A stretch of 64,000 bases of DNA from an uncultured archaeon. Lineage in GTDB: Archaea; Aenigmatarchaeota; Aenigmatarchaeia; QMZP01; JACQNV01. The number at the start of each line of letters is the position of its first letter. Position 1 is the first letter of the stretch. The notes beneath the pieces are model-generated. The model saw nothing but the letters and a program-made list of their open reading frames with translations, made no database searches and had not been told where the DNA came from. Made by a program: the position numbers and the translations under genes. The stretch is taken from positions 68,781 to 132,780 of the forward strand of contig CAYPFW010000001.1 in NCBI GenBank assembly GCA_964410585.1, in the 5' to 3' direction. Positions 45,931-63,048 of this stretch are shown piece after piece.

Positions 45931-45966
45931 CACTTTTCTTTTTCTGCTCAGTTTTGAAAAAAGAAA

Positions 45967-46757: not shown

Positions 46758-46798
46758 ATTTAGTGTTTATTTTGTCTTGTTTAAATATGACCTGATAT

Positions 46799-46818
46799 TA
46801 TTCGGTTTCTGCCGAATA
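46799..46818. promoter_or_regulatory. perfect palindrome upstream of the ArsR-like gene (candidate operator)
   Basis: TATTCGG-tttctg-CCGAATA about 40-60 nt upstream of the start codon at 46757. Confidence 0.4.
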
Positions 46819-46929
46819 GTTTGCATAGTCATTTGTTCTTACAAAAAAAGATAAAATATGAATAGATATGTGATAATAATTTCGTTTCTAACAGGTTTTT
46901 CGATAGTGGTTTCTACAATTTTTTTATAG

Positions 46930-47250: not shown

Positions 47251-47279
47251 TCAAAAAGTATATAAGATAGTTTTAAATT

Positions 47280-47558: not shown

Positions 47559-47559
47559 T

Positions 47560-47784
47560 ATGGAAGTGAAAAAGGGAAAATACTTGCATTACAAGGGAAA
47601 AGAATACAAAGTCCTTGGAGTAGCAAAACACAGCGAGACAATGGAAGATCTAGTTGTCTATCAAGCGCTTTATGATTCAAAAGAGTTTGGCAAAAATGCG
47701 CTTTGGGTAAGGCCAAAGAAAATGTTTCTGGAAAATGTTGTTGTGGATGGAAAAGAAGTGCCTAGGTTCAAGATGATCACGTGA
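47560..47784 (+). CDS. DUF1653-like small protein
   Basis: GKYLHYKGKEYKVLGVAKHSETMEDLVVYQALY pattern. Confidence 0.5.
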   Translation: MEVKKGKYLHYKGKEYKVLGVAKHSETMEDLVVYQALYDSKEFGKNALWVRPKKMFLENVVVDGKEVPRFKMIT

Positions 47785-48104
47785 AGAGATTTAAATCTAA
47801 TCATGCTATTCTGCTTATGGGTTACATAGATCAAATTTTTAGACGTCCAGAGGACGATGTATTTGTCGTAGCAGAACCAAGACATGGAATAGCTGGTCTA
47901 CAATATATTGGATCAGTGCCCTATAGACTCGATTTCCCGAATAGAGCTGTAGATAGTGCTCACTATGTTTCTAGAGCTGAATTAAGAAGAGCTCTTGCAG
48001 ATAAACAAATAGAGCTTGAAAGAAGTTTAGCTATAACAGGTGATATACTTGAAAGCCTTGATCCGAGGAAGATGAAAAAGCAAACTGATAGAGCAGAATC
48101 CTAA
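47781..48104 (+). CDS. hypothetical protein (107 aa)
   Basis: ORF track; start overlaps upstream stop. Confidence 0.4.
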   Translation: MKRFKSNHAILLMGYIDQIFRRPEDDVFVVAEPRHGIAGLQYIGSVPYRLDFPNRAVDSAHYVSRAELRRALADKQIELERSLAITGDILESLDPRKMKKQTDRAES

Positions 48105-48150
48105 TTATATTTGAATTATTTATATACTCGGGAGTACCAATTTAGGTATT

Positions 48151-48363
48151 ATGGCAGAACATTCAAAAGGTTGTAGGGCTGCTTTGGCTGTATTTGGCCT
48201 GCTATTTTTGTTAGTGGGTTTGTATGCAGTCATGGGTGACCTTGGATCAGCAACAAAAATGGTTGACAAATGGTCTTTGGTCATCGTCCTTGGAGGCTTA
48301 ATGCTTCTCCTTAAAGGAGCATTTGGCGGAAAATGTGCAGCATGTGGTGGTCAATCAAAATAA
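48151..48363 (+). CDS. small membrane protein (70 aa)
   Basis: Two hydrophobic helices; C-terminal CAACGG. Confidence 0.4.
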   Translation: MAEHSKGCRAALAVFGLLFLLVGLYAVMGDLGSATKMVDKWSLVIVLGGLMLLLKGAFGGKCAACGGQSK

Positions 48364-48391
48364 TTTTGGGCCACTTAATTTTTTCTATTTC

Positions 48392-48844
48392 TTATTTTTC
48401 TTTGTTTAGAATATTCAGAAGATCGACTAAATATCTTATTGTGTATGTTGGTTCCTCCTCCTTTGTTTGAGGAAGAATTTTAGAGTATTTCCCAAATTTG
48501 AACCAAACAGTTTTCATGCCAGCCTTATTTCCAGCTTTTATTTCAGCCTGAATTTTGTCACCAACAACCAACACCTCTTCTGGTTTCAATCCCATTTCAG
48601 CTGCACATTCCAAAAAATGTTTTTTATCCTTGTGCTCGCCTTCAACAACGATTATTTTTGTGAATTTTTTATCCAACCCCTTTTCTTCCAAACTTTCCAA
48701 TCTATGCCCCTCGCCTGTTGTGATTAGGCAAAGTTTGTATTTCTTAGAAAGTTCCTCTAAAAGTCCTGGAACTTCGTCTATTAAGTCCCATTTTTCTGGG
48801 TCAAACAGAGTCCTATTATAATCAAAAATTATTCCTTTAATCAT
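48392..48844 (-). CDS. HAD-superfamily hydrolase
   Basis: N-terminal IIFDYNRTL (DxD-type motif I) and downstream HAD motifs. Confidence 0.7.
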   Translation of the reverse strand: MIKGIIFDYNRTLFDPEKWDLIDEVPGLLEELSKKYKLCLITTGEGHRLESLEEKGLDKKFTKIIVVEGEHKDKKHFLECAAEMGLKPEEVLVVGDKIQAEIKAGNKAGMKTVWFKFGKYSKILPQTKEEEPTYTIRYLVDLLNILNKEK

Positions 48845-48892
48845 GTTCTATGATTGAAACTGCACATTTAAAAACAAAATCCAATTAGAACC

Positions 48893-49183
48893 ATGCCAAC
48901 AAAAGAAGAAGTGATAGAGGTCCTGAAGAAAATAGAAGATCCTGAAATTCATATTGATATCTGGACACTGGAATTGGTGAGGGATATTGTAATTGAAAAT
49001 GAAAGGGTAAAAATTAAAATGACCCTGACAACACCTGCTTGTCCATATGGGCCTGCTTTAATACAAGAAGTTGAAAGCACACTCAAAACCCTTCCAGGTA
49101 TAAATTCAGTTGAAATAGAACTTGTTTTCTCTCCCCCTTGGCAGCCTTCAGATGAAGTAAAGGAAATGTTGGGGCTCACTTAA
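48893..49183 (+). CDS. DUF59/MIP18-family Fe-S cluster assembly protein
   Basis: EEVIEVLKKIEDPEIHIDIWTLELV and TTPACPYG motifs. Confidence 0.65.
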   Translation: MPTKEEVIEVLKKIEDPEIHIDIWTLELVRDIVIENERVKIKMTLTTPACPYGPALIQEVESTLKTLPGINSVEIELVFSPPWQPSDEVKEMLGLT

Positions 49184-49196
49184 GCCTTTATAAACA

Positions 49197-49244
49197 CCAG
49201 CTAGCCTTCTTTTAGAAAAAGAAGGCTACCGTACCCAAGAAAAC
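49197..49244 (+). terminator. conserved 3' hairpin element, copy 5 (after DUF59 gene)
   Basis: AGCTAGCCTTCTTTT-aga-AAAAGAAGGCTA-CCGTACCCAAGAAAAC; followed by TTTATAAATA TATA-like box before rps17. Confidence 0.45.
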
Positions 49245-49290
49245 TATAATTCACATTTATAAATACCTCATTTCTATATACTAAGATAAT

Positions 49291-49611
49291 ATGAAAACAA
49301 ACATAGGCGTTGAAGCCAACCCACCAAAAGAAAAGTGCGAAGATAAGAAATGCCCATGGCATGGCCAGCTTTCTGTTAGAGGCAGGGTCTTCGATGTAGT
49401 GATAAAAAGCACAAAACCAAACAAAACAGCAATTGTCGGCTGGGATTACAATCTATATTTGCAAAAATACGAAAGGTTTGAAAGAAGAAAAAGCAGGTTA
49501 TCTGCATACAATCCTTCTTGTTTGAGGGCAAAGGAAGGCGACAAAGTAAGGATAGCAGAGTGCAAGCCTCTTTCAAAAACAAAAAGCTTCGTAGTTGTTG
49601 GAAAGCTTTGA
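49291..49611 (+). CDS. rps17: ribosomal protein S17 (uS17), archaeal type
   Basis: CEDKKCPWHGQLSVRGRVF N-terminal extension and ECKPLSKTKSFVV core. Confidence 0.85.
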   Translation: MKTNIGVEANPPKEKCEDKKCPWHGQLSVRGRVFDVVIKSTKPNKTAIVGWDYNLYLQKYERFERRKSRLSAYNPSCLRAKEGDKVRIAECKPLSKTKSFVVVGKL

Positions 49612-49716
49612 TAGGAAACTTTTTGCCTTCCTATCAACAAGTTCGTCTGATGTGGAGATGACGAACATTTATAAGATCGGTGATCAATATACCTATTCAA
49701 AAGGTTTAAGCGTCGC

Positions 49717-49798
49717 GGAAGGCGTAAAATTTTTCCGAGCAACAGCGAAGAAAAATTTAGCCTCCTGTTTTGCTTAAGCTTTTGGGACAAAAGCTTAT
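49717..49798 (+). promoter_or_regulatory. conserved leader element, copy D (upstream of rpl14)
   Basis: GGAAGGCGTAAAATTTTTCCGAGC...GCGAAGAAAAATTTAGCCTCCTGTTTTGCTTAAGCTTTTGGGACAAAAGCTTAT then ATG. Confidence 0.6.
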
Positions 49799-50197
49799 AT
49801 GAAGGGACTTTCAGCTAACATCACAAAAGGACTTGGAACAAAATCCATACTCACATGTATAGACAATACAGGTGCAAAAGAATTGGAAATAATATCTGTC
49901 CGAGGATTCAAGGGTAAAAGAAGGACAAAACCAAGAGCAGGCGTCGGTGACCAAGTCACATGCAGAGTGAAAAGGGGAGTTGAAAAAGTCAGGCACGAAA
50001 TGTTCAAAGTTGTGATTGTTAGGCAAACAAAAGAATACAGAAGGTTTGATGGAACAAGAATAAGCTTTGAAGACAATGCAGGTGTAATAATCAATGAAAT
50101 GGGTGAGCCAACAGGAACCCTTTTGAAAGGCCCAATTGCAAAAGAAGCTGTGGAAAGATTCCCAACAGTTGGAAAGTTGGCATCAATAATAATTTGA
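49799..50197 (+). CDS. rpl14: ribosomal protein L14 (uL14)
   Basis: CIDNTGAKELEIISV ... AGVGDQVTCRVK ... GPIAKE motifs. Confidence 0.9.
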   Translation: MKGLSANITKGLGTKSILTCIDNTGAKELEIISVRGFKGKRRTKPRAGVGDQVTCRVKRGVEKVRHEMFKVVIVRQTKEYRRFDGTRISFEDNAGVIINEMGEPTGTLLKGPIAKEAVERFPTVGKLASIII

Positions 50198-50198
50198 T

Positions 50199-50411
50199 AT
50201 GGTCAACGTAACAAGAATAGGTGGATACACAGTAAGAGAAGATAGTGAAGAGATTCATGTTGTGATGCCTTCGGGAAGAGTTGCAGAGATTGATGGTGAT
50301 GATTATCACGCTTTCCGTAACCAAGTATATGCGGCCATGCGATCAGGTGCAACTGTTGCAGTTGATGTGCTTAGTAATTTTTTGAAGGATAGAGGAATTA
50401 GAAATTTATGA
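50199..50411 (+). CDS. small hypothetical protein inserted between rpl14 and rpl24
   Basis: 70-aa ORF, compositionally unlike flanking ribosomal proteins. Confidence 0.4.
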   Translation: MVNVTRIGGYTVREDSEEIHVVMPSGRVAEIDGDDYHAFRNQVYAAMRSGATVAVDVLSNFLKDRGIRNL

Positions 50412-50809
50412 AAACACAGTGGTCAACAAGCTGGATAAGCAGCAAGCAGCCAAGGAAGCAAAGAAAATATAGATACAATGCTCCTCTTCATGTCAGAAGA
50501 AAATTTGTTTCAGCACACTTATCAAAAGTTCTTAGAAAAAGATTCAACAGAAGGGCAGTCCCTTTGAGAAAAGGTGATGAAGTCGAGGTCATGAGAGGAA
50601 ATTTCAGTGGCCAAAAAGGCAAGGTTGAAAGAGTAGATCTTAAACACTCCAAAGTTTATGTTGAAAACATAAAAGTAAAAAAAGTCAACGGCACAGAAGT
50701 TTTAAAACCTTTAGAGCCTTCAAATCTCCTAATAACAAACCTGGTCCTCGAAGACAAAATGAGGAAAAAAGTCTTGGAAAAGAAAATGATCAAAGAGGAG
50801 GCTAAATAA
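50408..50809 (+). CDS. rpl24: ribosomal protein L24 (uL24)
   Basis: KOW motif LRKGDEVEVMRGNFSGQKGKV. Confidence 0.8.
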   Translation: MKTQWSTSWISSKQPRKQRKYRYNAPLHVRRKFVSAHLSKVLRKRFNRRAVPLRKGDEVEVMRGNFSGQKGKVERVDLKHSKVYVENIKVKKVNGTEVLKPLEPSNLLITNLVLEDKMRKKVLEKKMIKEEAK

Positions 50810-51525
50810 TGTACCTAAAAAGATATTCAGCTCCAGAGCAATGGAAGATTGGAAAAAAAGCATACACATGGGTAGTTAAACCATCTCCTGGACCTCATCC
50901 GCTGAAAAAATCTATTCCCCTTCAAATTCTTGTTAGGGACGTTTTCAAATTCGCAGACACGGCAGCAGAAGCAAAAAAAATAATCCATTCTGGAAAAATT
51001 TTAGTTGACAAAAAAGAAAGGAAAGATCCAAAATATCCTGTCGGTTTAATGGATTTGATAGATATACCATCTATCCAAAAATCATATAGAGTTTTCCCAT
51101 CCAAAAAAGGACTTGAGGTTCTCGAAGCTAGCCAAAGTGAAAACGCAAAACTTTGCAGAATAAACGACAAAAGAACATTGAAGAAAAATGTTTTCCAATT
51201 AAATCTTCATGACGGAAGAAATCTTATCACAAGTGAAAACACATACAAGCCAGGCGATTCTATTCTGATTAGTTTACCAGGACAGGAAATTGTAAAACAT
51301 TATTCACTAAAACAGGGCGAACATGCTTATGTTATTTCAGGAAAAAATATTGGATTCAAAGGCTCAATAAAAGAAATAAAACAAAGAAAGTATATGAGAG
51401 AAAGTAGTAAAGTTGTTTTGGAAAAAGACAAAGACAGGATAGAAACTCTGAAAGATTACATTTTGGTTGGTGAGTTAACAGGCGAACAAAAAGTTGAAAA
51501 GAAAAAGAAAAAAGAAAGTGAATAG
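50809..51525 (+). CDS. rps4e: ribosomal protein S4e
   Basis: MYLKRYSAPEQWKIGKKAYTWVVKPSPGPH N-terminus. Confidence 0.85.
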   Translation: MYLKRYSAPEQWKIGKKAYTWVVKPSPGPHPLKKSIPLQILVRDVFKFADTAAEAKKIIHSGKILVDKKERKDPKYPVGLMDLIDIPSIQKSYRVFPSKKGLEVLEASQSENAKLCRINDKRTLKKNVFQLNLHDGRNLITSENTYKPGDSILISLPGQEIVKHYSLKQGEHAYVISGKNIGFKGSIKEIKQRKYMRESSKVVLEKDKDRIETLKDYILVGELTGEQKVEKKKKKESE

Positions 51526-51527
51526 AT

Positions 51528-52043
51528 ATGTTGAGCATGCGAGATGTTAAATTGGAAAAGGTTACGATTAATGTAGGCACAGGAGAACCTGGACCTAAAT
51601 TAGAAAAAGCAAGAAAAATAGTTGAAAAAATAAGTCAAAGAAAGGCAGTTATTACAAAGGCTAAAAAGAGAACAACTTTCGGAACAGTCAAAGGAAAGCA
51701 AATAGGTGTTAAAGTCACATTGAGAGGAAAGCCTGCAGCAGAATTTTTAAAAAGTGCTTTCAAGTCTGTTGGAAACAAGCTAAAGGCTTCACAGTTTGAT
51801 GCTTCAGGAAACTTTTCATTTGGAATAGAGGAATACATAAACATCCCCGGTATAAAATATGATCCGGAAGTTGGTATGATGGGAATGGATGTATGTGTTA
51901 CACTCCAAAGACCTGGATATAGGGTTAAGAAAAGGATGATAAGGCCGGCAAAAATAGGTAAAAATCATTTGCTAAAAAAAGAAGATTCAATTGAATTTGT
52001 AAAAAAACAATTTGGAATACAAATATCTGAGGATCAAAAATAA
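51528..52043 (+). CDS. rpl5: ribosomal protein L5 (uL5)
   Basis: LEKVTINVGTGEPG and conserved L5 core; synteny. Confidence 0.85.
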   Translation: MLSMRDVKLEKVTINVGTGEPGPKLEKARKIVEKISQRKAVITKAKKRTTFGTVKGKQIGVKVTLRGKPAAEFLKSAFKSVGNKLKASQFDASGNFSFGIEEYINIPGIKYDPEVGMMGMDVCVTLQRPGYRVKKRMIRPAKIGKNHLLKKEDSIEFVKKQFGIQISEDQK

Positions 52044-52083
52044 AATCATGGAGGGTCTAGAAATATAAAAAAAGTTTAAGCGT

Positions 52084-52161
52084 GGAAGGCGTAATTTTTT
52101 GCAAGCAACAGCGAAGCAAAAAATAGCCTCCGTTTTTGCTTAAGCTTTTGACTAAAAGCTT
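52084..52161 (+). promoter_or_regulatory. conserved leader element, copy E (upstream of rps14)
   Basis: GGAAGGCGTAATTTTTTGCAAGC...GCGAAGCAAAAAATAGCCTCCGTTTTTGCTTAAGCTTTTGACTAAAAGCTT then ATG. Confidence 0.6.
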
Positions 52162-52383
52162 ATGAGCTTTGAAAATTCATTGAAACAGGTGAAGAATAAA
52201 CCAGAAAAAATGAAAAGGGTACTTAAATTTAGTTCACCCAAAAAAAGAAAATTTGGAAAAAATTCTCATCCCTGCAGAAGATGTGGTAGGACAAGGGGAG
52301 TAATAATGAAGTATGGCTTGCAATATTGCAGGCAATGTTTCAGAGAGCAAGCACAGAGGCTTGGTTTCAACAAATTTTCCTGA
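52162..52383 (+). CDS. rps14: ribosomal protein S14 (uS14, zinc-binding type)
   Basis: CRRCGRTRGVIMKYGLQYCRQCFRE zinc motif. Confidence 0.8.
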   Translation: MSFENSLKQVKNKPEKMKRVLKFSSPKKRKFGKNSHPCRRCGRTRGVIMKYGLQYCRQCFREQAQRLGFNKFS

Positions 52384-52387
52384 TCCT

Positions 52388-52458
52388 AACCTTTTAGGAA
52401 AAGGTTAAGGTTCACCCAAAGAAACTACAGCTGAGTTCAACAAAGCTACCGTACCCAA
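52388..52458 (+). terminator. conserved 3' hairpin element, copy 6 (after rps14), bipartite
   Basis: AACCTTTT-agg-AAAAGGTT then AAGGTTCACCCAAAGAAAC ... AGCTACCGTACCCAAAAATC. Confidence 0.4.
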
Positions 52459-52524
52459 AAATCAAAAATATACAAATTTGGGAACCCAGAGAAACAGTAT
52501 ACAAAATCAATTGACGAGGAAAAT

Positions 52525-52911
52525 ATGCGACATGACCTAATATCAGACGTCTTCACAATATTGAAGAACGCAGAGAATGTTGGAAAGAAAGAATGTGTAG
52601 TCAAAGCTTCAAACTTGACAAAGGACATATTAAAAACAGCACAAAAACACAAATATATAGGTGATTTCGAGTTCATAGATGATGGTAAGGGCGGCCAGTT
52701 CAAAATCCAACTTTTAGGTAGAATAAACAACTGCAATTCGGTTAAGCCAAGATTTTCTGTGAAAAAAGATGAATTCATAAAATATGAGAAAAGATATTTG
52801 CCTGCAGATAAAGTTGGGTTACTTTTTGTAACAACTTCAAAAGGAGTTTTTGATCATCACACAGCTAAAAAAGAAAAAGTTGGCGGCAAACTTTTAGGGT
52901 TTATCTATTAA
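52525..52911 (+). CDS. rps8: ribosomal protein S8 (uS8)
   Basis: MRHDLISDVFTILKNAENVGKKECVV N-terminus. Confidence 0.85.
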   Translation: MRHDLISDVFTILKNAENVGKKECVVKASNLTKDILKTAQKHKYIGDFEFIDDGKGGQFKIQLLGRINNCNSVKPRFSVKKDEFIKYEKRYLPADKVGLLFVTTSKGVFDHHTAKKEKVGGKLLGFIY

Positions 52912-52912
52912 T

Positions 52913-53179
52913 ATGGTATCAGCAAAAAAAGACATAGAAAAAGCGAAGAAGGAGAATAAATTACTTTTAGGAACAAACATAGTTCTGAAAAAACTAAAAG
53001 GCGGCGAGCTGAAAACAGTGATTTACAGTTCAAACTGCCCTGGAGAAACAAAAAAAGATTTAGAGTATTATCACAAATTAAGCAACATAGAGATCCAAGA
53101 ATTTGAGGGGACATCAAAACAACTTGGCGAGGTTTGTGGTAAACCGTTCAATACACTAGTTATTGGCATAAAGAAATAG
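52913..53179 (+). CDS. rpl30e: ribosomal protein L30e
   Basis: LLGTNIVLKKLKGGELKTVIYSSNCPGETKKDLEYY pattern of the L30e/L7Ae fold. Confidence 0.75.
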   Translation: MVSAKKDIEKAKKENKLLLGTNIVLKKLKGGELKTVIYSSNCPGETKKDLEYYHKLSNIEIQEFEGTSKQLGEVCGKPFNTLVIGIKK

Positions 53180-53222
53180 GTATTAATCTCTAAACAGAAA
53201 CCTATATACAGAGAAACAAATT

Positions 53223-53627
53223 ATGACTATTAAGATTTCAACAGAGGACTTTAGAGTTATAAGCACATTTGAAAGAATAACCAAAGTCTATCCAAAAGAC
53301 TGCTTGATAACAGATGATGTGATCTATTTTTTGGTTGAAGGCAAAAAAATAAGCCTAGCTATTGGAAAAGGTGGTTCCACAATAAAGGATGTCAGCAAAC
53401 ATTTGGGCAAGCCTGTGAAACTTTTTGAATATTCTGAAGATCCACAAACATTTATCAAAAATATGATCCCTTCTGCAGAAGAAGTGAAAATAGACAACGG
53501 CAATGTTGACATTTCTGTGCCTTCAAAAGAAAGGTCTGCTGTGATTGGAAGAGAAGGAAAAAACATCAAGGCAATAAAAGAATTTGCAATCCGGCATTTG
53601 GGTGTTTCTAATTTGAGGTTGAAGTAA
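53223..53627 (+). CDS. nusA: archaeal NusA-like KH-domain protein
   Basis: Two KH GXXG motifs (IGKGGSTIKD, IGREGKNIKA); position after rpl30e. Confidence 0.7.
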   Translation: MTIKISTEDFRVISTFERITKVYPKDCLITDDVIYFLVEGKKISLAIGKGGSTIKDVSKHLGKPVKLFEYSEDPQTFIKNMIPSAEEVKIDNGNVDISVPSKERSAVIGREGKNIKAIKEFAIRHLGVSNLRLK

Positions 53628-53664
53628 AAATTCAGTAATATAAGCTCCTTTTTCTAACTATAAT

Positions 53665-56172
53665 ATGGTATTTATAGGTTCTGATAGAGATGTTGACCTA
53701 TACATGCGAGAGGCAAGATCAATACCTCTTCTAACAAAAGAACAGGAGTACAATTTAGCTTGTGTATATAGAGGCGTTGGACCTCTTATAGGATCTAGCA
53801 TTTACCAAAACAAAAATCATCCATTCAGTACCTATAGAAATGGAAAAGCTTATTCTGAAATGTCACCTACAGAAGCAGCTGATTTGATGAGTAGGGGAAA
53901 TAGAAGACTTGTTATTAGTATAGCAAAAAGATATAGAAACCGAGGTTTGGATTTCCTCGATCTTCTTGCAGAAGGTGAAGTTGGCCTTGTTAAAGCTGTG
54001 CAAAAATACGAGCCTCAAAAAGGATTCAAGTTTTCAACATATGCAACTTGGTGGATAAAACAATCGGTAAAAAGAGCACTTGAAAAAACGCGGCAAATTC
54101 ATATACCGATTCATATTTTTGAAATTCTTCCACGTTTTAATGAAGTATATAGAACTCTCCAAAGCGAGTTACAGAGGCCTCCTAGCACAGAAGAGATTGC
54201 ACAAAAAATGGGCTTGAAACCCTCCCAGGTTATTTTGATACAGGATGCAAAGGTAACCAAATCTAGAAAACTTTTAAGTCTAGATAGAATGAAGGGCGAT
54301 GATGAAGATGAAAGCATGTATAAAAGTATAGAGGACAGAACAGCAGATAGACCAGATGATCAAATGAGTCAATTAGACTCGGCAGTTCTGCTCAATACAC
54401 TAATGGACCGCCTAACAGTAAGAGAAAGATATGTTATAGAAAGCCGAAAAGGATTGAACGGAAAAAGTCAAAAAACACTTGAGGAACTTGGATTGGAATT
54501 AGATGTGACAAGGGAAAGAGTAAGACAAATAGAAATCAAGTCAATGGAGAAGCTTAAACAGGCAGCTAAAAGTATTCGTGCTACTAGTGTCATCAAAAGT
54601 AATATTGAAAGCGATAAACAGGTAGCTCAACAAAGCAAAAGACTGAATCGCCCAAATTATCCAGCAGAGAGAACAGAAGTATCTGATTCAAGCTCCTATT
54701 CTGTCTCAGAAATACATGGAATGTGGGGATTTGGATCACATAGTGCAACATCAAGACACATAAGATTAAGCGCTGCAAGAAAGGTGGGTTGGGGAAGATA
54801 CTCAAAAGAAGACATAGATAAGTACACTGCAAGCTTTGGTCTTTTTGGTGAAGAACCGGTTATTAAACAGCAATCTATTTTAGATGAAACAATACCAGTT
54901 GAAGAAAGGGATTGGCTTACATTTGCTGAAATAAAAGAACTGTTTGGCTATCCAAACGCAGAGTCAAACTACAGACACATAAGATTGAGTGGCTCAAGAA
55001 AAGTAGATCACGACAAATACACAAAAGCAGAAATCCTTGCGTACATAGATTGGCACATGAAAGACCTTCTAAATATGCCATTGAAACACGCTGAAACAAT
55101 GACAGATGTGAGACAAGGAATAACTATAGATGAAGTACTTTCTGACCCTCAAATAGCTGATCTTTCTTTTAAAGATATTAGGAAAATTTCAGGGAAATCT
55201 GAAGCAGCTGTATACAATGCAATTAAAGCCAATAATATCCAAAATACAGCAAGAGGCAGATATCCAAAAGAAATTCTTGCAACAATAAGAGAGAGAGATG
55301 AAAGAAGAGTGAAAACCCACACACTACATGACGGCACAAATCACAAAGCAAGAATAGTTTTCGAAAACACAGAAACAGATGACACAACTCCACATGAAAG
55401 AGCAAAAGTGAATAGAAGATCTTATTCTGCGTCAGACGTTTCTAATCTTTTAGATATATCAGTACATGAAGTTCGCCCATTTTCTGTCGCTGTAGGCATA
55501 TCAATATCTGGGCACAGCAAATATTCTAAAAAAGATGTAGATGAATACCTAGCCAAAAGGGAAGAAATACTTGCAATCCCAATGAGAGAAAGAGATGTTT
55601 TGGATATATCTGAAATTTGTGATATGTTTGGTTTTGATACATGGCGATCCACACAAAACCACCTTTATGCAAGCAGGTCTCAGAGGCTCGGAGTTGGCTT
55701 GTTTTCCAAAAGAGAAATTTTAGAATATATAGACATGCACATGCAAGACCTTTTGAACATGCCATTTGTAAAAGCAATGTCACCGGAGACAAAAACTCCT
55801 GAAACGGTTCAACAAATAGAAAGGAAACCTTACAAAAGCCCAGGAATAGAATTAGAATTTAATCCAGGAGAAAATGTACTTCTTCCTAGTTCTGTTAGAG
55901 AATTAACTGGGAGAGATCCTAGCCAACTTCTTAAATATTTGAGATCCCGTGGATTAAGATCAAGAGAATTTAGAATAGGTTGTGTTGCTGAATATTTGGA
56001 TTATATGAGAAAGAAAAAAGAAGTAAAGGAAGAAGCCAAAGACAAATTTTATGGCGGACTTAAAGAGCTTGTCCAAAGGGAAGGCAGAAGACCAGAAAGG
56101 AAGCTTGTAATAAATGTGCAAATAAAAGTTCAGGACATTCACCAAAATTCTGTTGTCGAAGAAGCAGTCTAA
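53665..56172 (+). CDS. sigma-70-family sigma factor domain fused to six tandem HTH-like repeats (835 aa)
   Basis: Region 1.2 [18 protein letters not shown]; region 2 [53 protein letters not shown]; region 4.2 [28 protein letters not shown]; then repeats such as [43 protein letters not shown]. Confidence 0.8.
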
Positions 56173-56588
56173 ATATCCAAAATAACCCTAGCAAACCATC
56201 CTGTTTTTGTTTTTTTCACTTCAAATCGATGCAGAGTGACAGCTTTTACATCAACTTTAAGTTCGTGTTTTTTTGGATCTATTTTTTCCCCTTCCAAAAC
56301 AGCTTTTAGTCTGTTTGGCTTTCCTTCAGAAATAGAAACTTTGATTTTTGAAAACAGAAGTAATTCAGCGTCTTTCAAAAAAATCAACTCTTGGAGAAAA
56401 TCAAAAAACAGCATTTCTATATTGTCTTTTTCCAAAACAATTTCCTTTTTCACTTTTGTTTTTATCCCCTTCAAATCAACTTGCGTCTCTTCTGTAGCCA
56501 GTCCTGCTGCTTCAAAAAGTTCATCTAAACTTTTCCCCTTTGCTTCAAACAAAACATCTGCTGTGTGGTCGAAAAACTTATAACCCAT
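56169..56588 (-). CDS. archease
   Basis: [29 protein letters not shown] archease N-terminal signature. Confidence 0.8.
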
Positions 56589-56619
56589 CTTATTAATTGA
56601 CAGAGTAGAATATATCTCT

Positions 56620-57423
56620 ATGAGAAGAGGAATACGGCTTAGGGCCTATTTGATGCTGACAGGAGAATTCAAAAAATCTTTTGATGTGATTAGGCTAGTA
56701 GAGTCTGGAAAAATTTTGGTTAATGGAAAGATTGTCACAAACCCAGAATTCCACATAAACAAAAAAGATTTAATCGAGATGAAAGACGGTCAAGGTTTGA
56801 AAACATTTAAAACAAAATCTTTTGTTTACCTTATTTTGAACAAGCCTACAGGATATGTATCCCAAAAACTACCCCTTTCTTTAGAAAAGAAAGGTGTAAG
56901 GTATCCCAAAGAAACTAATATAGAAAATAATAATGAAAAGTCTGTGTACGAATTGATCTACAAAATACCTGAGCTAGATATTGAGACAAAAAAAACTTTA
57001 TTTGCTGTTGGTCGTTTAGACAAAGACACAGAAGGCCTGCTAATTTTCACAAATGATGGAAAATTATCCAATGAATTGATGAGGCCAGAAAAACACATAC
57101 AAAAAACTTATTTTGTTGAAACCCAAAAATCAATTTCTGAATTAGATTTGAAAAAATTGGAGTCTGGAGTAAAAATAAGAACAGAAGAAGGAGAAGCTTT
57201 TGTCAAGGCAGTCAAAACACAAAAATTTTCAGATAGAACAGCTGAATTGATTATAGACGAGGGAAAGAAAAGACAAGTGAAGCTCATGTTTTTGTCGATT
57301 GGAAACAATGTTGTTCGTTTGAAAAGAGTTGGTATTGGAAAACTAAGAATAGAAAACCTAGATTTCAAAGGAAAAAATTATTTGATAACCAACAAACAGG
57401 AGTTGGAAAAATTACTATTCTAG
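56620..57423 (+). CDS. RsuA/RluB-family pseudouridine synthase with S4 domain
   Basis: Catalytic motif GRLDKDTEGLLIFTNDG; S4-like N-terminus. Confidence 0.8.
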   Translation: MRRGIRLRAYLMLTGEFKKSFDVIRLVESGKILVNGKIVTNPEFHINKKDLIEMKDGQGLKTFKTKSFVYLILNKPTGYVSQKLPLSLEKKGVRYPKETNIENNNEKSVYELIYKIPELDIETKKTLFAVGRLDKDTEGLLIFTNDGKLSNELMRPEKHIQKTYFVETQKSISELDLKKLESGVKIRTEEGEAFVKAVKTQKFSDRTAELIIDEGKKRQVKLMFLSIGNNVVRLKRVGIGKLRIENLDFKGKNYLITNKQELEKLLF

Positions 57424-58275
57424 CTTTATTTTGTTTTTTATTCTATCTATTCCTTCCCCAATAAAAACCAATTTTTTATCTCCTTGCTTTTCTTCTAGAT
57501 CCCATCTACCAGCAACAAAATTTATCAGTGTGGATTTCCCATCTAAATTTACAAACCCTTTCAATCTGTACACTTCTTTTGGGATGTTTTTGAGGAAGCT
57601 TTCCAATTCGATTTTGGTAAACCTCTTTTTTGATTCTAAAACAAAACTTTCCATTTTGGTGTGTTCTGATTTTTTGTGCAATTTCCTTTCTCTATGTTCA
57701 ACTTCTAAAGAAAACAACAAGTCAACATCAACCTCACAGTGTTTTGTTTTGAAAACATGTGCACGCGGGTTTAGGTTTTTTATTTTGTTTTCAATATTTT
57801 TTATCTGATCCGCTTTTACCAAATCAATCTTGTTCAGTAAAACAACATCTGCAACTTCTATCTGTGCTTCACCAACTTTCCCTATGTTAGGGAACCGAAC
57901 AAAAGAATCTGCATCTACGACGATTACCACAGTATCCAGCTTTACCTCCTTCAAATTTTCTTCGACATCAAAAACAATTGCATCTGGTTCAGCCACTCCA
58001 GTTGTTTCAACAATAATTATTTCAGGTGAATATTTTTGTATGATCTCTTTTATTGCAAATTCAAATTCTCCTGTAAGAGAACAGCATACACAACCGCCGG
58101 AAAGTTCTTGTATATCCACATTTTTTCCTTTGATGATTTGTGTATCTATAGAAACTTCCCCAAACTCGTTCATCAAAATAGCAAATTTTCTGTCTAAATT
58201 TTCAATTACTCTTTTGAGTAGAGTTGTCTTCCCTGCTCCCAAATATCCAGAAATTATTGTTATTGGAGTTTTCAT
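57415..58275 (-). CDS. COG0523 (CobW/ZigA-like) metallochaperone GTPase
   Basis: Walker A GYLGAGKTTLL, GGCVCCS metal motif, NKIDL; start set to MKTPIT (ORF-track frame -27). Confidence 0.8.
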   Translation of the reverse strand: MKTPITIISGYLGAGKTTLLKRVIENLDRKFAILMNEFGEVSIDTQIIKGKNVDIQELSGGCVCCSLTGEFEFAIKEIIQKYSPEIIIVETTGVAEPDAIVFDVEENLKEVKLDTVVIVVDADSFVRFPNIGKVGEAQIEVADVVLLNKIDLVKADQIKNIENKIKNLNPRAHVFKTKHCEVDVDLLFSLEVEHRERKLHKKSEHTKMESFVLESKKRFTKIELESFLKNIPKEVYRLKGFVNLDGKSTLINFVAGRWDLEEKQGDKKLVFIGEGIDRIKNKIKLE

Positions 58276-58341
58276 ATTAGTATATATGACAAATAGAAAC
58301 ATAAGGAAATAGTCTCTTCTTCTTGTGATCTATTAAAAGTT

Positions 58342-59271
58342 TCATACTTTCCTCCCAACAATCAGATGATGTGGAGCATATGGGCCCTCGTCGCCATCTG
58401 TATATCTCCAAAGTTCTGTTTTAAATCCTCTTTCCTCTAAAAACAAACATCTATCCAAACAAATCAATTGTTTAGCAACAATAGAAACAATCATATTGTG
58501 TTCATCTCGGTGTGTTTCTGGAACAAATCTGTCTCCTTCTTTCCTTCTTGTGTGTGGAGCATTTATCAATTTATGTAAAAGTTGAGTGTCAATACCAAAC
58601 TTTTTGGCATAGTCAGATAGTGGAAATTTGTATGGGTATCTTCTTCCATTTTTTCCGGCTTCTAAATCTTTTCCACTTCTATCCACTAATTCTGGAAGGT
58701 TTATTGGTGTGCTCAAAACAATATCAACACCTGTCGCAGCTGCCTGTTGAACCAAATCTGCTCCAACAATGCCAGGAGATCTAAATCCAGTTAGAATCCG
58801 TTGTCCACCATTGTAGTGTGCACTAAGCGGATATCTTGGTTCAAATCTTGCTTCCTCTAATCTTAGATTTCCAACTGCTGCGTGGAGATCTTTCAAATAT
58901 CTTAGAACTTCTTCCCTTGTTCTGAATGTTCTGTATCCCAAATTTGCATCATTGTTAAAATTTTCAGGGGAAAAGGAAACATCTATACCAACAACTGCTA
59001 TTTTTGGTTTTTCTCTTGCAAAATCCGCTGTGAATCTTATGCCTGAATGGCAACCAACATCGACAAGTACTGTGCTTGGCTCGTCTCTTATTTCAGGTGA
59101 AAACCTATCAACAACATATTCTCTGTCTAAGACCCCTTCTGGTTCTAAACCATCTGTTCTAGGAAGACTTCTTTCTTGATATCCAAAATCTTCTCTATAG
59201 CTTCCTGTTCTGAGACCTCCAAACCTGTCTAAAAAGTGTACAGTATAAAAAAACCTTTCTCTAGTGTTCAT
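58342..59271 (-). CDS. hypothetical protein, possibly methyltransferase-fold
   Basis: VLVDVGCHSGIRF weakly resembles SAM-binding motif I; Arg/Gly-richer composition. Confidence 0.45.
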   Translation of the reverse strand: MNTRERFFYTVHFLDRFGGLRTGSYREDFGYQERSLPRTDGLEPEGVLDREYVVDRFSPEIRDEPSTVLVDVGCHSGIRFTADFAREKPKIAVVGIDVSFSPENFNNDANLGYRTFRTREEVLRYLKDLHAAVGNLRLEEARFEPRYPLSAHYNGGQRILTGFRSPGIVGADLVQQAAATGVDIVLSTPINLPELVDRSGKDLEAGKNGRRYPYKFPLSDYAKKFGIDTQLLHKLINAPHTRRKEGDRFVPETHRDEHNMIVSIVAKQLICLDRCLFLEERGFKTELWRYTDGDEGPYAPHHLIVGRKV

Positions 59272-59364
59272 TGGAGAAGTAGGCTAGAATGATTTATATA
59301 TTTTAAAAAGATGTTTTGGATCAAAGAGGTTAACATAAGTTTATGTATTAGCTGTGGTATATAA

Positions 59365-60339
59365 TTAACCCTTAACATTCCCAACGGGAACCAACTTGAC
59401 AACTTTTTGAGAAATATCTTCATCAAGTCTATTTTTCTTTGATTCTATATATTTATCGAGAGCTACCTTTTTGATAAACCAGTTCCTTCCTATCTTGTGT
59501 GCTTCTATTTTTCCCTTTCTTGCAAGCAGGCTAAGATATTCTTGTGAATATGGTGTGCCTTTTGATGCTTGCTCCAGGCTTATAAATTCCGGTCCCTTTT
59601 TGAAAGCATCCAAATAAAAGTCTAGGCTTCTTTCCACATTGCGAGCAATAAAATTTGCAAATGGTTTAATGTCTCCTGAATCTGCTTTTCTAAGTTTGTC
59701 ATAGTATTTATTCCTATCAACTTTTAGTACCATCGTTATTGGATATCCATGTTTCATCAAAAAGAGGTTCATGATCAATCTTGATGTTCTCCCATTACCA
59801 TCTGTGAATGGGTGTATTTCAACTAGTTTATAGTGTATAATTGCCGCGAGTTCTATAACATTCAAATTTTCTGGGTTGTTAGAGACATATTCTATAAACT
59901 CTTTCATTTTGTCAGGGACTTTTTCAAACCTTGGCGGACTTTTTACAGCTCCCAAAATTCTTACATTTACATCTCTGTATCTGCCTGCATATTCATCATC
60001 AATACCTGTCAAAATTATCTTGTGAACTCCCTTTATTGTATCCTCTGTTATTTGAGATGTTTTGTTTACAATGTCTTCCAAAAATTCAAAAGCTTTTTGG
60101 TGGTTTATAGCCTCAAAGTGTTCCCTTAAAGGTTTTCCTTTTATTGTAATGCCTTCCTCTATAACAAGTTTTGTTTCTCTTAATGTAAGCGTGTTGCCCT
60201 CTATAGCATTTGAATTGTATGCCAATTCTATTGCAAACTGTTTTCTCAAATTCTCCAATGCAGATTTCGGCAATGGTCTTAGCGCGTCCAATTCCTTCTT
60301 CTTTTTAACTATTCTTTGGTATAATTCTTGATCTATCAT
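59365..60339 (-). CDS. fic: Fic/DOC-family protein with C-terminal winged-helix domain
   Basis: Fic motif HPFTDGNGRTSR; last 16 codons copy the rtcB C-terminus. Confidence 0.8.
   Translation of the reverse strand: MIDQELYQRIVKKKKELDALRPLPKSALENLRKQFAIELAYNSNAIEGNTLTLRETKLVIEEGITIKGKPLREHFEAINHQKAFEFLEDIVNKTSQITEDTIKGVHKIILTGIDDEYAGRYRDVNVRILGAVKSPPRFEKVPDKMKEFIEYVSNNPENLNVIELAAIIHYKLVEIHPFTDGNGRTSRLIMNLFLMKHGYPITMVLKVDRNKYYDKLRKADSGDIKPFANFIARNVERSLDFYLDAFKKGPEFISLEQASKGTPYSQEYLSLLARKGKIEAHKIGRNWFIKKVALDKYIESKKNRLDEDISQKVVKLVPVGNVKG
59368..59415. repeat. 48-bp direct repeat, copy 1 (3' end of fic)
   Basis: ACCCTTAACATTCCCAACGGGAACCAACTTGACAACTTTTTGAGAAAT; 45/48 identical to copy 2. Confidence 0.85.
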
Positions 60340-60443
60340 ATCTATATATTGTATCGGATATCTTATAAATCTATCTATCCGATATATTAGAATACAGTAT
60401 CGGATGCAACTGATTTTAATCTATCCGATATTGGAAGAAACAG

Positions 60444-61928
60444 CTAACCCTTAACATTCCCAATTGGAACCAACTTGACAACTTTCTGAGAAATGCCAGC
60501 GTTGTGTGCTGATTCGATGACTTCGTCAATATCCTTGTACGCGCCACCAGCTTCTTCAGCTAAACCAGAGAACGAAACCGTTTTAACTAGAATTCCTCTC
60601 TTCTCCATATCTTTTTGTAGTTGCTCGCCTCTCCACTGCCTTTTCGCTGCGTTTCTTGACATTGTCCTTCCAGAACCGTGGCATGTTGATCCAAAAGTCT
60701 CTTCTTCTGCTTTTTTTGTGCCGACCAAGAGATATGAGCCAGTTTCCATTGAGCCACCGATGATCACAGGTTGTCCATCATCCCTGTAAATTTTAGGAAC
60801 CTCCTCCCTTCCAGGACCAAGGCTTCTGGTTGCGCCTTTTCTATGTACGATGACTTTTTTCTTTTTTCCATCAACTACATATTCTTCAATTTTAGCGGTA
60901 TTGTGCGCCACATCATACACTTGTTTCATTCCTAAACTTTCCGGTGACTGTTTGAAAACATCTGAGAATACCTCTCTGATTCTGTGCAAAATAACTTGCC
61001 TATTTGCAAAGCTCATGTTTATTCCAGTTTGCATTGCTTTGAAATAATCTTGTCCTTCAGGTGATTGGAAAGGAGCACAAGCAAGCTCCCTGTCCAAAAT
61101 TTTTATTTTGTATTTAGATTCCATCACAGACAAAAATTTGGTCAAATAATCTGTTGCAACTTGGTGGCCATATCCTCTTGAACCACAATGGAACATCAAA
61201 ACAATTTGATCTGGGAAAATCCCCCATTTTTTTGCAAGTTCTTTGTTGATTATGTTTTCTGGCAGAACTCTTTGGATTTCTAAATAGTGGTTTCCAGAAC
61301 CTAAAGTTCCTATCTGATCTTTACCTCTTTGGATAGCTTTGTCAGAAACTTTGGAAACATCTGCTGCTTTCATCCTTCCATTTTCTTCTGTCCTTTCCAA
61401 ATCCTCTTCCCAACCATATCCTTGCTTCACACACCACTCTGCACCAAGTTCAACAACTTCTTTGAATTGTTGTGCATTTAGTTTCACAAAACCAGAAGAT
61501 CCAACACCTGCAGGAACTCTATCGTATAGTTTATTTACTAAGTTTCTTAGTTGAGGTTGGACATCTTTGAAAGTGAGATTTGTCAACACAAGACGCATGC
61601 CGCAGTTAATATCAAACCCTATTCCACCTGGAGAAATCACACCTTCTTCTAAATCAAACGCAGCGACACCGCCAATCGGAAAACCGTATCCCCAGTGTCC
61701 ATCTGGCATACAGTATGCAAATTTCTGAATTCCGGGCAAGTTTGCGACATTGGTTATTTGGTCGTAGACTCCTGGGTCCATTTCGTTGACCAATTTCTTT
61801 GACGCGACAATTCTTGCCGGCACATTCATGCCAGTTTTGTGGGTTTTAGGGATTTCCCAGATGTATGGTGTGATCTGCTTGATTTCTTTTGGCTTCTCTA
61901 TTCTGATCTGAGATCCTTCTTCGTTCAT
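60444..61928 (-). CDS. rtcB: tRNA-splicing ligase RtcB
   Basis: GGSMETGSYLLVGT and GSTCHGSGR motifs, 494 aa, C-terminus KLVPIGNVKG. Confidence 0.9.
   Translation of the reverse strand: MNEEGSQIRIEKPKEIKQITPYIWEIPKTHKTGMNVPARIVASKKLVNEMDPGVYDQITNVANLPGIQKFAYCMPDGHWGYGFPIGGVAAFDLEEGVISPGGIGFDINCGMRLVLTNLTFKDVQPQLRNLVNKLYDRVPAGVGSSGFVKLNAQQFKEVVELGAEWCVKQGYGWEEDLERTEENGRMKAADVSKVSDKAIQRGKDQIGTLGSGNHYLEIQRVLPENIINKELAKKWGIFPDQIVLMFHCGSRGYGHQVATDYLTKFLSVMESKYKIKILDRELACAPFQSPEGQDYFKAMQTGINMSFANRQVILHRIREVFSDVFKQSPESLGMKQVYDVAHNTAKIEEYVVDGKKKKVIVHRKGATRSLGPGREEVPKIYRDDGQPVIIGGSMETGSYLLVGTKKAEEETFGSTCHGSGRTMSRNAAKRQWRGEQLQKDMEKRGILVKTVSFSGLAEEAGGAYKDIDEVIESAHNAGISQKVVKLVPIGNVKG
60447..60494. repeat. 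48-bp direct repeat, copy 2 (3' end of rtcB)
   Basis: ACCCTTAACATTCCCAATTGGAACCAACTTGACAACTTTCTGAGAAAT. Confidence 0.85.
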
Positions 61929-61965
61929 AGGCTATAATAGAAATAGATCAATATAAATATCTAAA

Positions 61966-63048
61966 TCATCTTTTCCCTCTAACAGCTTCCTCTACTTCGT
62001 GAATATCATTAGAAATTTCATCAAAACTACTAAGGGCTTTCACACGCTCTTCTTCTGTCATGTACATACCGTTATAAACTAGATATGTTGGTACTCCAGT
62101 TTCGCCTCCTCTGCCTTTAGATATAAAACCACCTTTGAGAACAACCCAGGGAGCCAGTGGATGGCCAGAAAAGCTAAACCTCGACGCTCTGATCGAAGAT
62201 TCTATTGCAGCTCTAGGATCTTCTACACCTGTTTTTTGGTAGAAGAAGTCTCTAATTGTTTCGTTTTCATCTAACCACATCAAACCAGAATTTCTAGATG
62301 GGTTTTCTTGATCTAAATACCAATCCATGAAATTATCAAAAAATCTTCCAGCGTCTTGTATAGCTGCACCAAAGTCGCGTTGACCTCTAACAGTTCTCTT
62401 GAACACATAAGCATCTATAGAAAATCCTCCAACTTCTACACCAACAACACTATCAAATCCTAAGGTTCCTCTTTTAACATCTCTCAGTATTCCTTCTGCT
62501 CCTTGTTTTAATTCTTTCTCGAATTTTGGATTGAAAGAACCGACCATATGTATTTCAACTTGATAAACTGGTTTATCTTGGTTTTCAAACAAAGCATAAC
62601 CTTTCAAAGCTCTGTGCACTGCCAAAGGATTCTTAAAAATAGGATCGTGAACTGGAATAACTATTCTTGTTGGATCTCTGTCAAAATGAGTAAAGTCTGT
62701 ACCAACTGTCCTCTGCAATCTTTCTATATCGCCCATAGCTGTTTGCAGAAAAGTTGGAGATTCAATATAGCCTTTCTCTCTTTTACCTGAATAAAATCTA
62801 TAAAATACTTGTGCTTCTAAACATCCACCAGTATCTAAACTTGGTTTTATATCTCTGTGTGACCAAACAGAACCGTGCCTACCCTCGAATGTATATTCGG
62901 GTGTTTTCGGTCTCCCGTCTACCTTCTCCATTGTTCTAAAAAAGGGTTCTAAGACACCACGATTTTTAAAAAGCCAGTTTGCATCTGACTCATAATCTTC
63001 TCCCCTTGTAGGATATGTTCTCGCTGATACCGCTTTTACTTTTATCAT
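61966..63048 (-). CDS. hypothetical protein (360 aa)
   Basis: ORF track; Arg/Gly/Asp-richer than typical for the window; no recognised motif. Confidence 0.5.
   Translation of the reverse strand: MIKVKAVSARTYPTRGEDYESDANWLFKNRGVLEPFFRTMEKVDGRPKTPEYTFEGRHGSVWSHRDIKPSLDTGGCLEAQVFYRFYSGKREKGYIESPTFLQTAMGDIERLQRTVGTDFTHFDRDPTRIVIPVHDPIFKNPLAVHRALKGYALFENQDKPVYQVEIHMVGSFNPKFEKELKQGAEGILRDVKRGTLGFDSVVGVEVGGFSIDAYVFKRTVRGQRDFGAAIQDAGRFFDNFMDWYLDQENPSRNSGLMWLDENETIRDFFYQKTGVEDPRAAIESSIRASRFSFSGHPLAPWVVLKGGFISKGRGGETGVPTYLVYNGMYMTEEERVKALSSFDEISNDIHEVEEAVRGKR

Follow-up and report, generated by a model that had tools for sequence, protein, structure and literature searches.

A bacterial-type sigma-70 module fused to an array of putative winged helix-turn-helix repeats in a DPANN archaeon

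The open reading frame and its sigma-70 module

The stretch of DNA analysed here, which we call the window, is a 64-kb segment (64,000 nucleotides; positions 68,781 to 132,780 of the forward strand) of a 600-kb NCBI contig, CAYPFW010000001.1, from assembly GCA_964410585.1 of an uncultured archaeon whose genome is not among the GTDB r220 representatives. Between an archaeal nusA gene and a convergent archease gene it carries, at 53665-56172, an open reading frame (ORF) whose product joins a bacterial-type sigma-70 module to a long C-terminal array of repeats (Table 1). A previous sequence-only reading of this DNA had recognized sigma-70 landmarks in order along this ORF, and the profile searches it proposed bear this out: the motifs it quoted are present, and the Pfam regions 1.2, 2, 3 and 4 follow one another, each above its gathering cut-off, which places the protein in the sigma-70 family. 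The sigma-70 superfamily profile TIGR02937 gives 93.5 bits for a cut-off of 42.9, the RpoD profiles of NCBIfam match with E-values of 1e-70 to 1e-73, and residues 372-604 of Escherichia coli RpoD align with residues 68-303 of the ORF (E 1e-53).

The specialized profiles set a limit to this resemblance. The protein remains below every equivalog cut-off, whether for RpoD_Cterm (TIGR02393, 237.8 bits for 354), RpoD (PRK05658, 247.6 for 555; PRK09210, 206.6 for 572) or RpoS (216.9 for 378.7), and well below those for RpoH and the remaining sigma factors of NCBIfam. Pfam detects no region 1.1 (Sigma70_r1_1) in the ORF; this region is absent because the ORF starts only nine residues before region 1.2 and 37 nucleotides after the nusA stop codon. 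The short spacing between regions 1.2 and 2 resembles that of actinobacterial and cyanobacterial SigA, which align from residue 10 onwards. Judged by its profile scores, the sigma half is a group-1/2-like sigma factor and not a bona fide primary sigma.

The state of individual residues was surveyed by aligning the ORF with 119 bacterial matches and the E. coli protein (120 bacterial proteins; E. coli numbering is used throughout). The archaeal protein keeps 71 of the 98 columns that are invariant in the bacterial set (72%) and changes the other 27. The residues with which E. coli sigma-70 contacts promoter DNA are all identical in the archaeal protein: at the -10 element Y430, W433, W434, Q437 and R441, at the extended -10 element H455 and E458, and at the -35 element R584, E585, R586, R588 and Q589. 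The DNA-melting residues F427, T429, Y430, W433 and W434 are also kept, as is the acidic GDDED sequence of the region 3.2 finger, next to which G520Y, D521K and F522S diverge. Several of the 27 changes fall in regions 2.1 and 2.2, the surface offered to the beta-prime clamp helices, with the substitutions L384R, I405L, Q406A, N409E, M413V and D417Q and the conservation of D403 and E407. Among the positions that contact these helices (L384, Q406, E407, N409 and M413), E407 alone is unchanged. This pattern is suggestive of an altered surface for the polymerase partner without being conclusive. The changes at positions 406 and 409 do not demonstrate a changed partner, because functional bacterial alternative sigmas vary at the same sites (Q406E in protein P0142, N409I in P0140 and P0143).

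Searches with the full-length protein are dominated by bacterial RpoD and return nothing close except the same strain. The best non-self matches of the sigma half are bacterial RpoDs with 42-48% identity; no archaeal orthologue of this half surfaced, and no archaeal protein ranked above bacterial RpoD. A search restricted to the divergent sigma segments returned four sigmas of about 330-360 residues, bacterial-looking by composition or gene neighbourhood, and phage records match the sigma half only, with 35-46% identity. The ranking singles out no donor lineage: RpoDs of Campylobacterota top the list, yet primary sigmas of E. coli, Actinobacteria, Cyanobacteria and Firmicutes follow within a few bits. 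The sequence-only reading knew of no family with a sigma-plus-helix-turn-helix-array architecture, and we came to the same result, since the fusion occurs in none of the 5.8 billion clusters, 1.84 billion representatives, PDB sequences and phage records searched. Nor did the literature yield any account of a sigma factor to which excisionase-type domains are attached as an array; a mention of 'RpoN' in a Nanoarchaeota provirus proved irrelevant. The missing orthologues are weak evidence, because the lineage is sparsely sampled, its nearest NusA proteins being at most 51% identical.

The C-terminal repeat array

The array occupies residues 342-790, with units starting at residues 345, 417, 500, 586, 645 and 738. 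The significance of each unit was evaluated by leave-one-out profile tests against 300 shuffles and by pairwise scores against shuffles. The six repeats announced by the sequence-only reading stand in part: R1, R2, R4 and R5 are matched by none of the shuffles, and R3 and R6 are marginal (4/300 and 11/300). Going by these scores, the array is best read as four clear repeats accompanied by two marginal, divergent ones. R1 to R3 and R6 are basic (pI 8.3-10.4) and R4 and R5 acidic (pI around 5.5); R1 and R2 have almost the same putative recognition helix, RHIRLS. The block formed by R1, its linker and the R2 helix is collinear with the block formed by R4, its linker and the R5 helix (score 200, z 26.5), from which it follows that the array grew inside the gene by duplication of a multi-repeat block.

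The same reading had compared the repeats to excisionase/MerR-type helix-turn-helix (HTH) modules, a claim that sequence profiles do not sustain and that a structural model supports at the level of the fold. Among the individual repeats, Pfam HTH_17 (PF12728) matches R4 alone, at positions 2-50 of the 51 of the profile and with 16.9 bits for a cut-off of 27, the other repeats giving no Pfam match. HTH_17 is also the sole match of a strict majority consensus repeat, again below the cut-off (13.4 bits). A score of 30.9 bits obtained with a hand-edited consensus was disregarded, the HTH-like residues having been picked in a biased manner. An AlphaFold2 (AF2) model of R2, built with the four paralogous repeats as alignment (five paralogous sequences in total), reaches a predicted local distance difference test (pLDDT) score of 87.9 and displays a beta-alpha-alpha-beta-beta-alpha succession, that is a strand, a helix-turn-helix, a two-stranded wing and a C-terminal helix. 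For the C-terminal half in its entirety, a model from the single sequence reached a pLDDT of 36.6 and was discarded. With the R2 model, Foldseek places BldC first in the PDB (E 0.17), and in a viral library nearly all the top 50 matches are phage proteins of the Excise, AlpA, PrtN or 'HTH DNA-binding' kinds, with probabilities of 0.9-1.0 and template modelling (TM) scores of up to 0.73. The R2 model matches MerR folds as well. The model thus supports an assignment of the repeats to the excisionase/MerR-type winged HTH fold, for which the sequence profiles remain sub-threshold.

The array has no relative in the databases consulted. An exhaustive HMMER search of the 1.84 billion representatives with the C-terminal half gave no homologue beyond the same protein, and a profile of R1 to R5 had no match in the 5.8-billion-cluster database and no meaningful one in the PDB sequences. 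Two apparent homologues, P0138 (E 2e-16) and P0139, are proteins with Calx-beta and F5/8 type C repeats and were rejected as spurious because many weak repeat matches sum up in such proteins.

The Fic protein encoded at 59365-60339 on the minus strand carries a true HTH_17 domain at its C-terminus (30.6 bits) and matches the SoFic defence model of PADLOC (E 7.7e-39). This domain is not detectably related to the sigma-array repeats, and the idea that the array is a recent copy of it was abandoned (hhalign E 0.07, not significant).

Table 1. Features of the sigma-array gene and of its immediate surroundings (window coordinates).
Feature	Position	Strand	Evidence and remarks
Sigma-array ORF	53665..56172	+	835 aa, ATG start; sigma-70 module, linker, predicted winged-HTH array and charged tail
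Sigma region 1.2, aa 10-32	53692..53760	+	Pfam PF00140 (Sigma70_r1_2) 23.7 bits, cut-off 22
Sigma region 2, aa 78-143	53896..54093	+	Pfam PF04542 (Sigma70_r2) 64.8 bits, cut-off 24
Sigma region 3, aa 156-233	54130..54363	+	Pfam PF04539 (Sigma70_r3) 42.1 bits, cut-off 25.3
Sigma region 4, aa 246-299	54400..54561	+	Pfam PF04545 (Sigma70_r4) 38.8 bits, cut-off 24.1
Linker from sigma region 4 to array, about 42 aa	54562..54687	+	No profile match; low pLDDT in single-sequence model
Repeat R1, aa 342-398	54688..54858	+	Leave-one-out 48.7 bits, 0/300 shuffles; basic, pI 9.7
Repeat R2, aa 414-472	54904..55080	+	Leave-one-out 53.5 bits, 0/300 shuffles; unit chosen for modelling
Repeat R3, aa 497-551	55153..55317	+	Leave-one-out 3.3 bits, 4/300 shuffles; z 3.8-5.3 to R1 and R2; divergent, pI 10.4
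Repeat R4, aa 583-639	55411..55581	+	Leave-one-out 16.4 bits, 0/300 shuffles; acidic, pI 5.5
Repeat R5, aa 642-700	55588..55764	+	Leave-one-out 47.0 bits, 0/300 shuffles; R2-R5 pairwise z 16; acidic, pI 5.4; R2 paralogue
Repeat R6, aa 734-790	55864..56034	+	Profile 1.4 bits, 11/300 shuffles; z 3.5 to R3; degenerate, pI 10.1
Charged C-terminal tail, aa 791-835	56035..56169	+	Read from the sequence; no family match
(AG)n dinucleotide tract	55287..55298	+	Site of a 2-bp deletion in a second sample
Ribosomal protein L30e gene	52913..53179	+	Pfam Ribosomal_L7Ae 60.6 bits; NCBIfam PRK01018 76.5 bits
Archaeal NusA-like KH-domain gene	53223..53627	+	TIGR01952 nusA_arch 110.9 bits, cut-off 74.35; 37-nt gap to the sigma ORF
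TATA-like box TAATATAA	53636..53643	+	Centred about 25 nt before the ATG of the sigma ORF
Archease gene	56169..56588	-	Pfam Archease 145.6 bits; convergent, stop overlaps the sigma ORF stop

Genomic setting and residence of the gene

The sigma-array gene follows the genes for L30e and the archaeal NusA, as had been noted before, and archaeal genes are spread over the whole window: ribosomal protein genes in the orders L4-L23-L2-S19-L22-S3 and L14-L24-S4e-L5-S14-S8, the L30e, NusA and Rpo7 genes, and those for an archaeal-type ProRS, GatB, RtcB and archease. The archaeal Rpo7 constitutes the only evidence of a polymerase on the contig; neither a bacterial RNA polymerase (RNAP) gene nor a secretion signal was seen in the 64 kb. 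Boxes resembling TTTATATA are centred 23-33 nucleotides before the ATG of many other genes of the window. The TAATATAA box of the sigma gene is placed like them and is therefore a candidate archaeal promoter, which would produce a leaderless mRNA.

The sequence-only reading had taken the gene for a resident one sharing the composition of the window, and this proved correct. There is no step in GC content at the gene, its GC content at third codon positions (GC3) is 0.255 for a window mean of 0.297 +/- 0.045, and with a value of 0.038 its synonymous-codon distance ranks near the bottom of a set of 60 genes, both halves being alike. The order S8-L30e-NusA-sigma-archease, including both junctions, recurs in two Logan assemblies that were made independently from different runs, one of which (L001) contains the identical ORF. 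Given the native codon usage, the archaeal-style TATA box and the agreement of the two assemblies on the junctions, the sigma-array gene is resident in this genome and is neither a contaminant nor a chimera. The gene is intact in the window and in run ERR4904391. In run ERR4904390 (locus L006, around 3167-3176) a 2-bp deletion in the (AG)n tract, at about 55288 of the window, splits it into an ORF of 544 residues with the sigma module and R1-R3 and one of 287 residues with R4-R6; apart from the deletion, the surrounding sequence that could be aligned is identical. This split allele could be due to strain variation, slippage, decay or an assembly error.

The nearest NusA proteins (42-51% identity) belong to metagenome-assembled genomes (MAGs) of Nanoarchaeota, Aenigmatarchaeota and the 'DPANN group'. 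In the window (52525-53627) the ribosomal cluster is rearranged, S8 being followed directly by L30e and NusA and not by L6 and the usual order. The S8-L30e-NusA order is common to a Nanoarchaeota MAG (L002, 9304-12383), in which the Pfam-checked succession is S8-L30e-NusA-Rpo3-S12-S7, and probably, by ORF size only, to an Aenigmatarchaeota MAG (L003, 295-2526). In two relatives besides the Nanoarchaeota MAG, nusA precedes ORFs assigned to S12 and S7 by their size only. A degenerate DNA pattern search for the near-universal sigma motif TYATWW was negative at all four DPANN loci, and the NusA-S12-S7 linkage is broken by a sigma gene in the window only. The sigma gene thus stands at a synteny break, because the nusA of the relatives is trailed by S12 and S7 without it. 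This describes the locus better than the earlier notion of a gene embedded in a transcription/translation cluster, of which the adjacency of L30e and NusA remains true.

Several other features of the window deserve mention. Just downstream of the sigma gene, past the archease gene, 56620-57423 (+) encodes a PseudoU_synth_2 pseudouridine synthase with an S4 domain, a combination that we associate with the bacterial RluA/RsuA type, so that it may be another bacterial-type gene in the neighbourhood. An element of about 85 nucleotides is present in three copies on the plus strand (37590-37680, 38659-38749 and 49713-49803), two of which end at a start codon, namely the ATG of a 107-residue ORF (37674) and that of the L14 gene (49799). 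Its 22-nucleotide core occurs three times for 0.01 expected, RNAalifold folds it into two hairpins in which 6 of 27 pairs show compensatory changes, and Rfam gives no match; it may be a structured leader, a small RNA or a miniature repeat element. At 9304-13557 (+) lie ATP-citrate-lyase-like genes (ATP-grasp and citrate-binding, CoA-ligase and citrate-synthase C-terminal domains), split by a pair encoding a thioredoxin and a DsbD-type membrane protein, a notable metabolic capacity for a DPANN-type genome. A protein of 1101 residues (18273-21578, +) has as its sole Pfam match the Nup98-96 autopeptidase S59 (residues 935-999, 29.1 bits for 28.4), which is unusual for an archaeon, and another of 880 residues (31586-34228, -) combines an adenylate/guanylate cyclase, an AAA_16 ATPase and TPR repeats in a bacterial-style STAND architecture within a small archaeal genome. 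Three minus-strand ORFs have no Pfam match: 58342-59271 (309 residues), 38950-41010 (686 residues) and 61966-63048 (360 residues), the first and the last being negative in PADLOC as well.

Interpretation and comparison with known systems

The interpretation we propose distinguishes the history of the protein from its function. As to the history, we hold it to be close to certain that a bacterial group-1/2-type sigma-70 module comprising regions 1.2 to 4 was acquired horizontally, has long resided in a DPANN lineage, as indicated by the host codon usage and the archaeal-style promoter, and was fused there to an array of four to six excisionase/AlpA-type winged-HTH units that grew by block duplication. 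As to the function, we tentatively favour a multi-site DNA-binding transcription regulator or architectural factor that would have kept promoter-like recognition. The covalently linked winged-HTH units would occupy tandem DNA sites of the same orientation, in the way that BldC, Xis and RdfS monomers do head to tail. Binding of such a chain would have a high avidity and would tether the sigma module to the DNA. The acidic R4 and R5 may mediate protein contacts instead of DNA binding. The sigma module, which lacks the auto-inhibitory region 1.1 and has all the promoter contacts, could add the recognition of -35/-10-like sequences.

Several observations weigh against this function. A tandem-repeat scan of the window yielded no suitable direct-repeat array as DNA target, and a promoter-consensus scan no candidate target either. 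Bacterial-type -35/-10 matches are depleted in 44001-64000 (38 for 54.6 +/- 8.1 in shuffles) despite the AT-rich genome and the resident sigma-70. The kept melting residues and acidic finger make more sense in a holoenzyme. The case as a whole is limited chiefly by the gene being a singleton, found in a single lineage with sparse sampling, by the split allele of the sister sample and by the model-based evidence for the fold of the array.

The melting residues and the GDDED finger, which matter mainly in a holoenzyme, lead to the alternative of an initiation or co-initiation factor for the archaeon's own RNAP. The sigma-70 module would then be wired into archaeal transcription, with the HTH array picking the promoters, promoter-like DNA being recognized and region 2 engaging, for instance, the clamp coiled-coil of Rpo1 (A'), the homologue of the beta-prime clamp helix. 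TBP and TFB already handle promoter recognition in archaea, we know of no precedent for a sigma factor serving an archaeal RNAP, and the archaeal enzyme has, to our knowledge, no equivalent of the beta-flap tip with a known affinity for sigma region 4. The changes clustered at the clamp-helix interface of regions 2.1/2.2 are those expected with a changed partner surface, but positions 406 and 409 vary in functional bacterial alternative sigmas too, and the local depletion of bacterial-type promoter matches also weighs against this alternative. The adjacency to nusA, the archaeal-type promoter, the archaeal RNAP subunit on the same contig and the lack of anti-sigma factors in the DPANN genomes that carry sigma-70 (Castelle et al. 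2021) speak for this alternative, which on balance we consider unlikely. A true sigma factor for a bacterial RNAP, delivered into, or acting on, a bacterial partner or host of this episymbiont-type archaeon by a phage-like reprogramming, or with an unrecognized bacterial-type polymerase encoded elsewhere in the genome, would account for the completeness of the module from region 1.2 to region 4 and for the bacterial-consensus state of all its promoter-recognition determinants, and phages commonly encode RpoD-like sigmas (35-46% identity). Neither a bacterial RNAP gene nor a secretion signal was seen in the 64-kb window, all RpoD and RpoS equivalog cut-offs are missed, and region 2.2 residues that are invariant in primary sigmas are changed. 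Moreover, the known hosts of DPANN archaea are themselves archaea, and we regard this explanation as very unlikely.

Could the gene be a neutral or decaying relic of an old transfer, devoid of current function? It is a singleton with no orthologue of either half in the databases searched, it is absent at the syntenic position in four DPANN relatives, the sister sample has a frameshifted allele, and R3, R4, R5 and R6 are strongly diverged. The relatives sampled are, however, so distant that missing orthologues say little, and an unbroken 2.5-kb ORF is hard to keep by chance at 37% GC, where stop codons arise easily. The retention of 72% of the columns invariant in primary sigmas, every DNA-contact residue included, the native codon usage and the expansion of the domain array after the fusion also make a relic improbable. 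A regulator belonging to a mobile element or a defence island, comparable to the sigma-like MzaA, with excisionase-type domains betraying a mobile-element origin, is suggested by the winged HTH of excisionase/AlpA type, typical of mobile elements and phages, by the match of the MzaA profiles to the sigma part, by the SoFic-like gene 3 kb away and by the position at a synteny break. The MzaA match, however, concerns the generic sigma part only and lies far under its cut-off (800); the neighbourhood lacks MzaB-E, an integrase, a tRNA and att-like repeats, the flanks are housekeeping genes (nusA, archease, pseudouridine synthase and RtcB) and the composition is native, which renders this origin distinctly unlikely. 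The probability of an assembly chimera or of bacterial contamination is practically negligible. The nearest relatives of the sigma half are indeed bacterial RpoDs, but an identity of at most 48% to any bacterial protein is the reason why a contaminating bacterial gene is not in question, and a chimera is contradicted by both junctions recurring in the two assemblies, by the absence of any break in GC, GC3 or codon usage and by the position of the gene inside a 600-kb contig.

Sigma factors on the one hand and TBP/TFB on the other are the textbook markers of bacterial and of archaeal/eukaryotic transcription start, and the genes of core information processing are believed to pass only seldom from one domain to another. 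To this picture our analysis adds, at the level of single residues, evidence for a promoter-recognition surface kept in full and for changes in parts of the polymerase-binding surface, evidence of long residence in the form of native codon usage, an archaeal-style promoter and a domain expansion posterior to the fusion, and a fusion partner indicative of DNA targeting as the function under selection. If the protein did engage the archaeal RNAP, it would be the first bacterial-type initiation factor shown to work in a cell with a TBP/TFB-dependent polymerase, and would bear on the modularity and interchangeability of initiation factors across domains. Were it no more than a DNA-binding regulator, it would illustrate how a sigma factor can be put to use as an ordinary transcription factor. 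Which DNA does it bind, and which polymerase, if any, does it engage? By raising these questions in concrete terms, the fusion makes the unexplained phenomenon of DPANN sigmas experimentally approachable.

Among known systems, RpoD/SigA and RpoS share with the protein the order of regions 1.2, 2, 3 and 4, and the contacts to the -10, extended -10 and -35 elements are identical to those of E. coli sigma-70. The archaeal protein differs from them by the absence of region 1.1, the scores below the equivalog cut-offs, the 27 changes at 98 invariant sites, the C-terminal extension of 500 residues and its archaeal host. Extracytoplasmic function (ECF) sigmas belong to group 4 and possess regions 2 and 4 only; the extensions that some of them carry serve sensing or regulation and are not DNA-binding arrays. 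The protein described here has a group-1/2-type module fused to predicted winged-HTH repeats. The principle of a fused C-terminal domain that modulates activity is nevertheless the same as in ECF sigmas with C-terminal extensions (ECF41/42-type; OrbS with its on-board sensor, PMC9023288). MzaA, of the MZA anti-phage system, is likewise a long (about 700 residues) sigma-70-family protein that combines its sigma module with a sizeable non-sigma region. This extra region is N-terminal in MzaA, the archaeal protein matching only the sigma part (profile positions 469-707 of 726; 219.5 bits with NCBIfam NF041931, cut-off 800, and 132.8 bits with PADLOC), and no neighbouring gene matches a Mza partner (MzaB-E).

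On the side of the array, BldC, Xis, AlpA, TorI and RdfS have the single-repeat fold beta-alpha-alpha-beta-beta-alpha of the modelled unit. BldC (PMC5859096) and RdfS filaments (PMC11963761) form head-to-tail multimers on DNA sites of the same orientation and distort the DNA, an assembly of small MerR-like/HTH_17 proteins that a covalent tandem array would mimic. These five proteins consist of single domains of about 55-70 residues that oligomerize non-covalently, whereas the array has four to six units in one chain together with a sigma module. True excisionases are paired with an integrase; no recombinase/integrase gene or att-like repeats were found in the flanks examined. Classical MerR regulators, in which the winged HTH is followed by a long dimerization coiled-coil and an effector-binding domain, are not a fitting model for it. 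The closest precedent for the sigma half lies within the DPANN archaea themselves, and the implication of the sequence-only reading that an archaeal sigma factor would be unprecedented no longer holds. In DPANN genomes, sigma-70 genes (family fam00359) were described by Castelle et al. (2021, Front Microbiol, PMC8204110) as 'particularly prevalent in Woesearchaeota'; these authors ruled out mis-binning, detected no anti-sigma factor and considered the mechanism unclear. As in the window, these genes are of bacterial sigma-70 type on contigs with otherwise DPANN archaeal genes. That report gives their presence only and says nothing of a fused DNA-binding array, whereas the protein of the window has 835 residues with an orphan C-terminal array of about 500. 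A sigma-70 in a DPANN archaeon has thus been on record since 2021, and the fusion to the array is the new part.

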